Positions 4,543 to 7,333 of a DNA stretch of 19,434 nt are shown piece by piece. Numbering within the stretch: position 1 is the first letter of the stretch; every line of letters starts with the position of its first letter. A model generated the notes under the pieces. That model was not told where the DNA came from and did not search any database. It saw nothing but the letters and a program-made list of their open reading frames with translations. The stretch is taken from the IMG/VR virus record IMGVR_UViG_2778261454_000002, positions 1 through 19,434 of that record, one strand, 5' to 3'. Both the position numbers and the translations under genes were made by a program. Source of the DNA: a virus (taxonomy: Duplodnaviria; Heunggongvirae; Uroviricota; Caudoviricetes).

Positions 4543-5460
4543 TTATCGCTTGGCTTCGCCGCCGAGAGAGGTTGTTAATCCGTTAATGAGAGAGATAAGC
4601 TCGCCGGTCATCAGAACAAAGTCAGCGTCGAACCTCTGAGCCGCATCCTCACGGTCGATATCGTCGTTTTGTTCTGTAATCTCATTAGAGAACTTAAGGC
4701 GTTTGATGCTGCCGTCATCGCAAAGAACGAACTGAATGCGCTGTTGCCAGTCGATAGACAGCTTTGTAACTACTTTGCCAGCTTCCAGATGCACATGAAT
4801 TTCGTCACTGACCAGAGTCTGTTTTTTAAAGCGTCCAATACCGCCATCTTCAAGAATAGCTTTCAGTTCGGCTTCATCACCCAGGCCAAAGCCAGCAGGC
4901 GCACTACCGGAACGAACCCATTCGGTCATAGTTAGTTCGATCGGCGTTTCCATAGTCAGCGGTACCACCGGGAGAGAACCGAGAGTTTTACGAAGCAGGG
5001 CCAGTGAGTCTTCGGCACGTTTAGCGCTGGCTGCATCAACCATGATCAGACCGTCGGTGACGTTGATCCACAAACTAACAGTCGAGTTTTTGGAGAACGC
5101 CCGAGGAAGCAGGGAGTGCAACACTTCATCACGCAGCGAATCTTTCTCAGTTTTTTTGAGGCGACGCCCCTGATCGGATTCCAGACGCGACACACGCTTG
5201 CGCAGTTCTTCAGCAATGACAGGAGATGGCAGTATTTTTTCTTCCCGGCGAATAACCAACAACACTTGATTATTGACAGTGTGATGCAAGCGATCTGACA
5301 GCTGACCAAGTGGTGATACCCAACCGGTTTTTGCCATATCCTGGCTACCGCATGGAGTGAAGCGAAATAGTTCAAGCTGCTGTTCCAGCTCTTCCTGGTT
5401 GATGGTGAAATCGCGACTAATGCGATACACCAACATATTTTTGAAAAACGGATTGTTCAT
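4543..5460 (-). CDS. rdgC: Recombination-associated protein RdgC homolog
   Basis: 305 aa, alignable along its full length to E. coli RdgC as recalled ([85 protein letters not shown]). GAGGAA RBS upstream. Confidence 0.85.
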
Positions 5461-5772
5461 TCTCGGTTCCTCAACGCCTCTGCACCGGCGCTAAAAAGTT
5501 AGTTTCTCCATACACAACAGAGAAGGGCACCTGCATTGGTCGGCGGCTTGCAGAGACCGCTTTCTTTTTGCCCGGGTGGATTGGGTTATGAGCCCGTCGC
5601 CCGGTGATGCCCTTTTCTGTTGTGCCCTGAAAAAGGCTGGCGGTTACCGGAAATACACGGGAAAACACCGGGCCGCCAGAACAGGGAGTTACTTGTTATT
5701 GCTTTAGCCTGCTTTTAACCACATCAGGCGCGGTGGTATCTTGGTGTTCTCACACAACCAAGAGGGATGTTT

Positions 5773-5970
5773 ATGGGCGCTTTTGATAACCAGGAAATTA
5801 CGTTACCCGCATGCCCTAAGTGCGGCACTAAGACGAAGAAGAAAATCGCTTGGCTCAAGTCGAACAAAAGTTTCACTTGTCGATGTGGAGCTACTATCAA
5901 TGTCAACAGCAGCCAGCTTACTTCCGAAATCAGGAAGGTTGAGGACAAGCTGAAGAAGCTCTTTAAATAG
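5773..5970 (+). CDS. Small zinc-ribbon protein (CPKCG...CRCG), 65 aa
   Basis: Track ORF 5767..5970; ATG at 5773 sits about 7 nt after AGAGGGA; followed by a hairpin with T-run. Overlaps antisense with the 3' half of the minus ORF 5803..6168. Confidence 0.45.
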   Translation: MGAFDNQEITLPACPKCGTKTKKKIAWLKSNKSFTCRCGATINVNSSQLTSEIRKVEDKLKKLFK

Positions 5971-6168
5971 TTTTTTATCGACTGATATTATTTCGTTATC
6001 AGAGGTTGGTTTTTCAGCCTCTGATTTTTTAGTCAGGATCATTTTTTCTACACATGTGACTACGCATTCCGAACAGATGGCAGGTTCGTCCTTACCACCT
6101 TTTGCGACGATCTTTATCGCTCCCAGTTCGGTTGCTCCGCAAAATGAGCATGTGAATAAATGATTCAT
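5803..6168 (-). CDS. ClpX-type C4 zinc-finger small protein; first gene of the leftward operon; 3' extent uncertain
   Basis: ATG at 6168 with GGTGGTAGAGG RBS (track start 6186 is TTG). N-terminal CSFCG...ICSECV resembles the ClpX N-terminal zinc finger. The downstream two-thirds is antisense to the plus ORF and may not be coding. Confidence 0.4.
   Translation of the reverse strand: MNHLFTCSFCGATELGAIKIVAKGGKDEPAICSECVVTCVEKMILTKKSEAEKPTSDNEIISVDKKLFKELLQLVLNLPDFGSKLAAVDIDSSSTSTSETFVRLEPSDFLLRLSAALRACG
5999..6030 (+). terminator. Rho-independent terminator-like hairpin
   Basis: TCAGAGG ... CCTCTGA stem with a 12-nt loop followed by TTTTTT, 29 nt after the stop at 5968-5970. Confidence 0.5.
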
Positions 6169-6279
6169 GTAAACCTCTACCACCAACCTAAGTTTTCTGT
6201 CAGCGAATCATCCGGTTATTCATATGCCACCGGCGGCTACTTCGTGGGCGTCCTGCCTGTTCGTTACTGCAACATCTTT

Positions 6280-6325
6280 AAGTTGTAATCTAGTTGTTGT
6301 TTTGGTTGTTGTCAACAACTTTATG
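6280..6325 (-). promoter_or_regulatory. Candidate pL promoter with OL-like operator palindrome
   Basis: On the minus strand, TTGACA (plus 6310-6315), a 17-nt spacer and TAGATT (plus 6287-6292). The -35 lies inside GTTGTTG-N-CAACAAC (about 6305-6319). Placement right of cI matches lambda pL/OL logic. Confidence 0.4.
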
Positions 6326-6378: not shown

Positions 6379-6482
6379 TGGACGATGCGCTTTTAATTAC
6401 ACAAGGGACACTTTCCTTCCGTGATTGGAAACTCTCAAATCACGGGAGGAAGATTGAAAAGGCGGGTAATAATGGTAACTAA
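6379..6482 (+). CDS. Possible small peptide (34 aa); low confidence
   Basis: ATG 5 nt after a near-perfect AAGGAGG; contains an 8-bp-stem hairpin (CCGTGATT...AATCACGG, about 6419-6446). Part of the longer TTG-start track ORF 6294..6482. Confidence 0.2.
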
Positions 6483-6509: not shown

Positions 6510-7196
6510 TTACCAAGTGCGCGATGACCAGAATACTCTACCTATAACGTGAATTCTTGAACGCCTATCTTCGAAGGTGAGTATTTCATCTGGATACTCA
6601 TCTTTATTGAAACTTCTTAGAATCAGACCACCGTCAGGTAAATTGATCAATATTTTAACTCTAAGTAATACGCCATCACGTATGGCATAAAGATCCCCAT
6701 CACGAATAGGAACCGTTTGGGAAACATCAACAGCAACAAAATCTCCATTGTTAAGTACAGGTAGTAAACTATTGCCCCAAATTTTTACGATCTTTGCATT
6801 GGAGACACATACACCAGCTTTTCTTAAATCAATCCTTCTTAGCGGGAACCAGTCTACAGTTGATTCAACTATTTCAGCCAAACATCCATTACCCGCTGAT
6901 AACTCGACATCTAGGACTGGAATGTTTGCAAAAATGTCAGGATCTAATGCTGTACTTTCAGCCTCCTTTACAACAAGGTCTGGGAAAGACGCGTTATCCT
7001 CAATGCCCAATTGCAACCACTTTTGAGAAACCCCTAACACTTTAGCAATCTCTTTAATTTTCCGAGGCTGTTGAGTTTCTCCATTCTCGATTTTCGCTAC
7101 GGATTGTTGTGAAAGCCCAATTTTTTCAGCTAGTTGCGCCTGACTCATTCCTGCTTTTTCTCTTTCGCTTTTTAGTCTTTCTGCCAATGTTTTCAC
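6510..7196 (-). CDS. cI: CI-type prophage repressor (N-terminal XRE HTH, C-terminal S24 LexA-like autopeptidase domain)
   Basis: 228 aa; HTH MSQAQLAEKIGLSQQSVAKIENG; C-terminal domain with Ser in IWGNSLLP and Lys in LLRVK. Divergent from cro; GTG start. Confidence 0.9.
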   Translation of the reverse strand: MKTLAERLKSEREKAGMSQAQLAEKIGLSQQSVAKIENGETQQPRKIKEIAKVLGVSQKWLQLGIEDNASFPDLVVKEAESTALDPDIFANIPVLDVELSAGNGCLAEIVESTVDWFPLRRIDLRKAGVCVSNAKIVKIWGNSLLPVLNNGDFVAVDVSQTVPIRDGDLYAIRDGVLLRVKILINLPDGGLILRSFNKDEYPDEILTFEDRRSRIHVIGRVFWSSRTW

Positions 7197-7199
7197 AAC

Positions 7200-7333
7200 A
7201 TATCCCCCTCGTTTTTATTGAGGTTACAACTTTATGTTTTAGCTTTCCAACATCTAAAAGTTGTGATAAAAGTTGTTGTAGTTGTATAATCGAAGTTATC
7301 AACAACTTTACTACTTACAGATAGGAGAAAGCT
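7200..7333. promoter_or_regulatory. OR-like operator cluster with PR (and presumably PRM)
   Basis: Repeated ACAACTTTA / TAAAAGTTGT and GTTGTTG / CAACAAC half-sites at about 7226-7238, 7254-7279 and 7299-7312. Plus-strand TATAAT at about 7285-7290 with TTGTGA about 18 nt upstream; AGGAGA RBS before cro ATG 7334. Confidence 0.6.

Follow-up and report, generated by a model that had tools for sequence, protein, structure and literature searches.

Protein-coding genes that lie antisense inside other genes have been described in enterohemorrhagic Escherichia coli (EHEC; nog1, asa and ano) and in Pseudomonas aeruginosa (olg1 and olg2), and according to their authors these genes are mostly young, lineage-restricted and established through expression data (PMC5960689, PMC6294744, PMC9927249, PMC8850804). 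At the level of transcripts, the ymfI–ymfJ pair of the e14 prophage of E. coli K-12 is listed as a convergent excludon from RNA sequencing (PMC12288877). Here we analyze a stretch of 19,434 nucleotides from IMG/VR virus record IMGVR_UViG_2778261454_000002 (the window), an e14-like lambdoid prophage of E. coli in which a 65-aa zinc-ribbon gene on the plus strand runs antisense to the C-terminal part of a 121-aa open reading frame (ORF) on the minus strand. Both ORFs are present where the original prediction had placed them, and comparative evidence argues for the second of the two options it offered, that both strands are coding. We have good confidence that both frames are selectively maintained, and we consider the full statement, a two-strand coding cassette that also works as a switch between opposed units, to be probable. 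The cassette consists of the following features.

5773..5970, plus strand: zinc-ribbon gene, 65 aa and stop (ORF list)
5760..5766, plus strand: Shine-Dalgarno sequence AAGAGGG of the zinc-ribbon gene (read from the sequence)
5707..5759, plus strand: conserved element upstream of the zinc-ribbon gene (nucleotide conservation)
5998..6031, plus strand: predicted intrinsic terminator of the zinc-ribbon gene, 12-bp stem, 4-nt loop and T6, with the hairpin itself at 5998-6025
5803..6168, minus strand: ORF of 121 aa and stop, ATG at 6168 and stop at 5805-5803
6174..6177, minus strand: Shine-Dalgarno sequence GAGG of the minus ORF, 5 nt before ATG 6168 (read from the sequence)
6046..6153, minus strand: ClpX-type C4 zinc finger module, residues 6-41 of the minus ORF (Pfam PF06689)
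5806..5997, minus strand: C-terminal module of the minus protein, residues 58-121, NEIISVDKKLFKELLQL...RLEPSDFLLRLSAALRACG (recurrence and constraint test)
5803..5970, both strands: doubly coding stretch of 168 nt in the sas13 register (frame arithmetic)

The overlap pairs plus codons 11–65 and the plus stop with minus codons 67–121 and the minus stop, in a register that sets plus position 1 opposite minus position 3 and position 2 opposite position 2 (for the sas frame naming and the OLGenie analytical framework, see PMC7531306). The zinc-ribbon gene lies antisense to the last 55 codons of the minus C-terminal module, and the plus ORF is nearly but not wholly nested: it had been described as fully antisense, and its first 10 codons extend beyond the minus stop. 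Some other details of the earlier description shift as well. The in-frame ATG at 5767 from which the plus gene had been started exists but is not conserved in homologs, in contrast to the ATG at 5773; the terminator does follow the plus stop, at a distance of 27 nt and not 29; and the ribosome-binding site noted for the minus ORF near 6168 is the GAGG listed above. An open 54-codon frame in the same antisense register occurs in 15–21% of windows in control genes from the same loci. The openness of 54 codons in any single sequence is no more than chance, and the case for dual coding therefore rests on comparative data.

Homologs of the minus protein conserve only the last ~60 residues, which sit on quite different N-termini. 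DNA collections were then searched with the plus protein as bait, which avoids a bias to open minus frames, and further loci were retrieved via individual proteins. The resulting sample comprises 30 distinct pairs, with 25 distinct intact 198-nt sequences, from Enterobacterales prophages (Escherichia, Shimwellia, Kluyvera, Serratia, Ewingella, Yersinia and uncultured phages), together with a remote sample of 24 loci. The full cassette is present in ~39 of 5,426 complete E. coli genomes, and the phage GenBank collection holds one record only, in which it is unannotated. Substitution events were reconstructed by parsimony on a neighbor-joining tree.

The plus protein is small and basic and contains a CPKCG..CRCG motif followed by a C-terminal amphipathic helix. 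Within Enterobacterales its ORF is intact down to 63% identity, two broken lineages excepted, and the ATG, the four cysteines and the ending KKLFK are kept in all sampled relatives apart from these two lineages and two more that lost one cysteine. The cysteines are otherwise invariant, with codons that flip between TGT and TGC, and a Shine-Dalgarno sequence is kept ahead of the conserved ATG as AAGAGGG, AAGAAGG or AAAAGGG. The nonsynonymous-to-synonymous ratio of the plus frame, dNN/dSN, is 0.19 (confidence interval 0.11–0.30), compared with 0.09–0.25 for ordinary genes, and AlphaFold2 folds the single plus sequence into a zinc ribbon and helix with a predicted local distance difference test (pLDDT) score of 79.6. 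On these comparisons, the plus frame is under strong purifying selection.

Gene callers read the locus the other way. PGAP calls only the minus ORF in this region, as 'ClpX C4-type zinc finger protein' (WP_016240143.1), leaving the plus ORF unannotated, and most other gene callers likewise annotate the minus ORF alone; in addition, among the relatives only the plus frame is ever broken, in two lineages, and it lacks a cysteine in two more. The zinc-ribbon ORF might accordingly be thought a mirror image whose conservation is imposed by the only functional gene, the minus one. We consider this explanation very improbable. Variable sites fall at plus codon positions 1, 2 and 3 in 31, 19 and 44 of 54 cases, so that the most variable sites are minus position 1, contrary to what minus-only coding predicts. 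The Thr/Ala and Ser/Ala/Pro alternations seen in the minus protein correspond to TGT/TGC and CGA/CGC/CGG changes on the plus strand, which are synonymous for Cys and Arg. Minus-synonymous events are also milder on the plus protein than expected (reciprocal test, z=+5.83), and the low dNN/dSN, the confident zinc-ribbon model and the conservation of the plus ATG, Shine-Dalgarno sequence, upstream element and terminator all speak for a functional plus gene.

The converse explanation, that only the plus gene is functional and the minus extension is a shadow ORF whose tail is a neutral appendage of an upstream gene, has more in its favor and is still, in our judgment, quite improbable. The plus frame is the dominant constraint, gene callers would on this view choose the minus ORF for its length, and openness in this register comes easily, both from the control windows given above and from a purine-rich strand that depletes antisense stops. 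Against it stands first the behavior of stop codons. All 30 Enterobacterales variants found with the plus-protein bait have a minus frame that runs through the overlap without a stop and terminates at one and the same codon. For the 143 inferred plus-synonymous events, the neutral expectation is that 4.7% create a minus stop, and none such was retained (P about 1e-3); in control genes given the same treatment, 43 of 1,319 events were retained as stop-creating. For Leu11, whose codon lies opposite the minus stop, 25 of 25 sequences use TTA or CTA, and no other Leu or Ser codon of the overlap ever takes a minus-stop form.

Constraint on the amino acids of the minus protein is a second line of evidence. 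Under plus-synonymous events the minus protein loses less than expected, on average -3.79 in BLOSUM62 score compared with -4.83 (z=+4.95), a signal absent from 11 control genes put through the same test (z -2.8 to +1.07). Leaving out Lys and Phe codons does not abolish the signal, nor does within-column resampling (z=+3.5 to +3.8), and it is weaker under PAM250 (z +1.7). Fourfold sites opposite invariant minus Arg and Cys residues never change. The share of AAG among Lys codons is 74% in the overlap compared with 36% in controls; avoidance of poly-A slippage was rejected as the cause of conserved AAG, since the constraint test stands without Lys and Phe codons. The flanks outside the overlap are likewise coding-like in the minus frame: the eight codons immediately ahead of it in that frame preserve E-[IML]-I-[ST]-[VI]-D-K and turn over synonymously, and in the Yersinia-type leader the nonsynonymous substitution rate divided by the synonymous one (dN/dS) is 0.31 in the ORF frame compared with 0.52–1.47 in the other five frames.

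Third, the minus C-terminal module is joined in frame to ~10 unrelated N-terminal modules and always ends at the same codon. These N-termini include the ClpX-type zinc finger of the window, AlpA (Pfam 2.6e-17), a PF27050 domain and at least six others; the junctions are independent, and each has at most a one-in-three chance of being in frame. The finger of the window, with CSFC...CSEC present, matches Pfam zf-C4_ClpX (PF06689) over residues 6–41 at E=7.6e-6 and 26.2 bits, just short of the cut-off of 27, and phrog_20296 matches the minus ORF over its full length (3.2e-68). Stand-alone ClpX-finger homologs of 66–82 aa without the C-terminal module also exist (P0013, P0014 and phrog_5259). In the window the finger is followed by no stop before the overlap, and translation must therefore continue into it. 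The first of the two original options, a minus gene of about 45 aa with a fortuitously open tail, is thus rejected by the absence of a stop, the 30 of 30 open frames, the ~10 in-frame fusions and the amino-acid constraint.

Prophages in which one frame carries a stop while the other is conserved had been named as the observation that would speak against double coding. They occur in one direction only: the plus frame is broken in two rare lineages that kept the minus ORF, contrary to the expectation for a shadow ORF, and the minus frame is broken in none. One lineage consists of three E. coli prophage contigs (L041, L057 and L084) that have lost one C from the CCC at plus codon 12, a deletion that puts the zinc-ribbon gene out of frame and adds 26 aa to the minus ORF; as it recurs in three loci drawn from two separate collections, IMG/VR and metagenome contigs, it may be real and not a homopolymer error. 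The other is an uncultured viral contig, L096, in which, by comparison with the uncultured viral contig L090, a deletion between short direct repeats has removed the promoter, the Shine-Dalgarno sequence and the first zinc-ribbon codons. In L096, W27 has also become a stop, and the minus ORF, still open, has Leu in place of a Pro that is invariant elsewhere. L096 is an example of the pair coming apart.

Relatives of the cassette extend well beyond Enterobacterales. Searching plasmids with tblastn and viral contigs with a second pattern scan recovered zinc-ribbon homologs at 35–55% identity in Ensifer, Sinorhizobium, Rhizobium, Microbulbifer, Synechocystis and many uncultured viral contigs, and a profile-free search with the minus module led to one contig with a G+C content (GC) of 0.32. 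The frame antisense in the same register is open over the whole zinc-ribbon ORF and beyond in 23 of the 24 remote loci, spanning 85–139 codons at GC 0.32–0.45. These antisense ORFs carry start signals of their own, an ATG and a Shine-Dalgarno sequence, 4–36 codons beyond the plus stop, and share an N-terminal motif outside the overlap, [VI]-x-[IL]-x-C-D-x-x-P, whose codons vary synonymously (TGC/TGT, GAC/GAT and CCA/CCC/CCT/CCG). In the GC 0.32 genome the frame is open for 139 codons from an AAGGAG-N7-ATG start, which a shadow ORF leaves unexplained. The conserved unit appears as a host gene of ~85–110 aa with a zinc-ribbon gene of 62–72 aa that crosses its middle and C-terminal part in antisense; the remote relatives have the host gene on its own, and Enterobacterales prophages have it joined in frame to various N-terminal domains.

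Annotation treats the remote cassettes much as it treats that of the window. On a plasmid of Rhizobium sp. T1473 (L099 1941-2264) and a Microbulbifer plasmid (L102 2004-2297), a PGAP 'hypothetical protein' is the antisense ORF and the zinc ribbon is unannotated; the Rhizobium antisense ORF overlaps the next gene by 4 nt. The zinc-ribbon homolog on Synechocystis pSYLA (L100 2001-2159) has no listed gene in an incomplete PLSDB table. There looks to be a systematic blind spot in annotation for this family of small zinc-ribbon proteins. On one prophage-like contig with a CI-type repressor, a BrnT/BrnA toxin-antitoxin pair adjoins the remote cassette (L105 546-1083).

Several observations weigh against a cassette with two working genes and a switch. 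The ratio dNN/dNS of the minus frame, 0.42–0.50, is not significant: values of 0.42 and then 0.50 had seemed significant by bootstrap but fall inside the low end of an empirical null derived from 7 ordinary phage genes, in which 7–16% of 54-codon ordinary-gene samples are as low, and the ratio is therefore not relied on. Substitution events were inferred by parsimony and neighbor-joining from short, possibly recombining sequences, and AlphaFold2 models the minus protein at a pLDDT of only 54.8 from a 26-sequence alignment. In the remote sample, the Synechocystis pSYLA homolog has a closed antisense frame, the sole exception of the 24 and a plus gene without an antisense ORF of the kind that the shadow-ORF explanation would expect. 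Two of the three antisense frames are poor in stops on account of the purine-rich plus strand, and a second antisense frame is also open for 78–104 codons in several remote loci, which together make the high-GC relatives uninformative. For the regulatory parts, the plus promoter is only consensus-like and falls below threshold in a consensus scan, and the canonical terminator is found only in the E. coli, Shimwellia and Kluyvera group. Family and fold searches point to no role for either protein, and the support for both frames is comparative.

Some of these points would fit an account in which the minus frame is kept open and its sequence is irrelevant, selection acting on the passage of ribosomes over the ~250 nt antisense stretch. 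Such passage could spare the downstream early-left genes Rho-dependent polarity, melt the hairpin or shield the mRNA from the plus transcript. The avoidance of stops and the in-frame joins to any upstream gene follow directly from this account, and the non-significant dNN/dNS and the low-confidence fold of the minus protein agree with it. We nonetheless find it improbable, if less so than either single-gene explanation, as it leaves unexplained the conservative bias of minus-protein replacements (z=+4.95; +3.5 in the within-column test), the fixed position of the minus stop, the unchanged fourfold sites opposite minus Arg and Cys, and the motif that recurs across phyla outside the overlap with its own start signals. 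Selection on both encoded proteins remains the reading we adopt.

The zinc-ribbon gene of the cassette is preceded by an element with the layout GCCTG-N(9-11)-CCAC-N-TCAGGC-N3-GGTGGTATC, which contains an extended -10-like TGgTATCTT (5734-5742) followed by the short leader GTTCTCACACAACC. From E. coli to Serratia, Ewingella and Yersinia the element is conserved as nucleotide sequence, and it is probably the promoter of the plus gene and possibly an operator as well. An ACCAC...GTGGT inverted repeat within it is retained even where the remainder differs (L090). A LexA or CI operator was rejected for this element, which has a CTG...CAG spacing of 13–15 and not 10 and is conserved across phages with different repressors. 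A ~55-nt element of the form GCCTG..CCAC.TCAGGC..GGTGGTATC..GTTCTCACACA is shared at ~85% identity with K-12 e14 (L097 2500-2560), where it precedes ymfI, an unrelated reverse-oriented gene, and it occurs in unannotated DNA of ~430 other E. coli genomes. The ~55-nt element seems to be a portable promoter or operator that serves genes in reverse orientation at this slot of the prophage.

Downstream, the predicted terminator hairpin of the plus gene (RNAfold -22.7 kcal/mol) is located inside the minus coding region, where in this window it also encodes linker codons of the minus protein. It has no U-tract on the minus strand, and should thus terminate in the plus direction only. Other lineages have a hairpin at the same place with no clear U-run. 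The promoter-like and terminator elements together predict overlapping transcripts at the locus.

The surrounding genes place the minus ORF at the head of the leftward operon, in a region that matches prophage 3 of the probiotic E. coli strain Nissle 1917 at 99–100%.

6510..7196, minus strand: LexA-family repressor gene
6287..6319, minus strand: predicted leftward early promoter TTGACA-17-TAGATT (6315->6287) and palindrome (consensus scan)
5460..4543, minus strand: rdgC, downstream of the 121-aa minus ORF

The minus ORF is the first gene downstream of the predicted leftward promoter, which is overlapped by an operator palindrome, GTTGTTGTCAACAAC, at 6305-6319; a related half-palindrome, GAAGTTATCAACAAC, lies at 7292-7306 beside the rightward promoter, and both are candidate operators of the LexA-family repressor. 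The original prediction had likened this slot to that of N in lambda, and the position is borne out, with no N-like family match in Pfam, NCBIfam or PHROGs. The minus ORF was accordingly rejected as a lambda N-type antiterminator, the zinc finger being its sole family match. A 34-aa ORF, MDDALLITQGTLSFRDWKLSNHGRKIEKAGNNGN (6379-6482, plus strand), occupies the opposite strand of the segment that separates the repressor gene from the leftward promoter; it has a strong Shine-Dalgarno sequence, AAAGGAGG, and a weak match to phrog_3989 as its only match (E=3.9e-4); E. coli matches to the cassette stop near 6263-6266, which makes this ORF part of the variable immunity segment. No Rfam family was matched in the window, one sub-threshold match having been discarded.

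Across Enterobacterales the cassette follows the repressor and leftward promoter in most prophages, or the lysis cassette in Yersinia, and it follows the lysis cassette also in the remote Rhizobium relative. On the Yersinia chromosome CP016940.1 (L044 3001-3279) it lies between lysis and terminase genes, away from the repressor, which suggests that the cassette moves as a unit between typical moron sites. Wherever the neighboring genes were examined, the minus ORF runs in the direction of the phage operon and the zinc-ribbon gene runs against it.

Convergent units, a one-way terminator and full complementarity make antisense regulation at the locus plausible, in line with the original suggestion. 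We propose, with less than even confidence and from the architecture, that the cassette acts as an antisense switch between lysogeny and the lytic phase. In the lysogen, the repressor would shut the leftward promoter and only the zinc-ribbon gene would be transcribed, from its own promoter-like element, with a transcript that would end at the one-way terminator short of the operators. On induction, leftward transcription would pass the hairpin, the minus protein would be made, and the zinc-ribbon gene would be silenced by polymerase collision and by a ~200-bp RNA duplex. The outcome would be an excludon-type mutual exclusion of the two opposed units.

Recombination cannot separate two genes that share their DNA, and this suggests that the two products act in a common process. 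A more speculative extension, and one we think doubtful, is that the pair is an old two-gene module spread across bacterial phyla whose products are functionally coupled, with linkage and exclusive expression enforced by the overlap; a lysogen-expressed effector and a lytic-phase antagonist would be one possibility for such coupling. If true, a coupled module spanning phyla would represent a new design principle for mobile-element gene pairs, and would stand among the best comparative cases for stable long antisense overlaps.

Searches against known families were made for both proteins. Pfam, NCBIfam, PHROGs and PADLOC returned nothing above threshold for the plus protein or for the minus C-terminal module, the PADLOC defense models matched neither the plus protein, the minus protein nor two homologs, and Foldseek comparison of the plus model with the PDB and BFVD gave generic zinc ribbons only (E>0.006). 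In size, CxxC..CxxC pattern and prophage location the plus protein resembles the small zinc-ribbon phage proteins Lar, YnfU and Com. Its profile matches are all well below the curated cut-offs (Lar 17.7 vs 28.6 bits, YnfU 16.9 vs 36, Com 15.9 vs 22.9), and membership in any of the three families was rejected.

If the cassette is as described, annotation pipelines systematically drop a conserved zinc-ribbon gene, PGAP calling the antisense partner only in E. coli, Rhizobium and Microbulbifer. The pair would also offer a clean system for the co-evolution of two proteins on one DNA, in which single-base changes can stop one frame and be silent in the other, and a candidate lysogeny/lytic toggle beside the immunity region of e14-like prophages, including Nissle 1917 prophage 3. 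No published description of the pair was found in the literature searched.

The arrangement can be set beside several known ones. Morons, inserted in prophage operons, are independent units of transcription, each with a promoter and a terminator of its own. The zinc-ribbon gene is moron-like in being small and reverse-oriented, in having its own promoter-like element and, in the E. coli group, terminator, and in lying at operon boundaries; a moron occupies its own DNA, whereas this gene shares DNA with a gene of the opposed operon. Type I toxin-antitoxin systems pair a non-coding RNA with a toxin that is a small membrane peptide. The cassette recalls them in its fully complementary convergent transcripts (predicted here) from one short locus on a mobile element, but differs in having conserved ORFs on both strands and soluble-looking proteins of no known toxicity; it was rejected as such a system, neither product having a transmembrane-like stretch as read from the sequences.

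Excludons are overlapping, convergent units of transcription that exclude each other's expression, and the e14 locus, which is listed as one, is closer in layout. Its slot is the same, with a repressor gene (ymfK) and a first leftward gene that converges on a reverse-oriented gene, and it shares with the present pair the ~55-nt element upstream of the reverse gene, the convergent layout and a terminator on one side only. The coding overlap in e14 is 63 nt and ymfI encodes an unrelated 113-aa protein, whereas here nearly the whole reverse gene lies inside its partner, in codon register.

Long antisense protein-coding overlaps in bacteria and phages are few, contested, usually young and supported mainly by expression. 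Like the EHEC and Pseudomonas overlaps, the present pair has an ORF antisense inside an annotated gene, and automatic annotation keeps one of the two. It differs in being known from sequence comparison alone, in that both frames are co-conserved across Enterobacterales and in remote groups, and in that the annotated partner, the minus ORF, is the less constrained one. The support is evolutionary for both frames and consists of deep co-conservation, many in-frame fusions and a substitution test calibrated on control genes. Judged on this comparative evidence and set beside the EHEC and Pseudomonas cases, the pair is a real and unusually well-supported antisense gene-within-a-gene.

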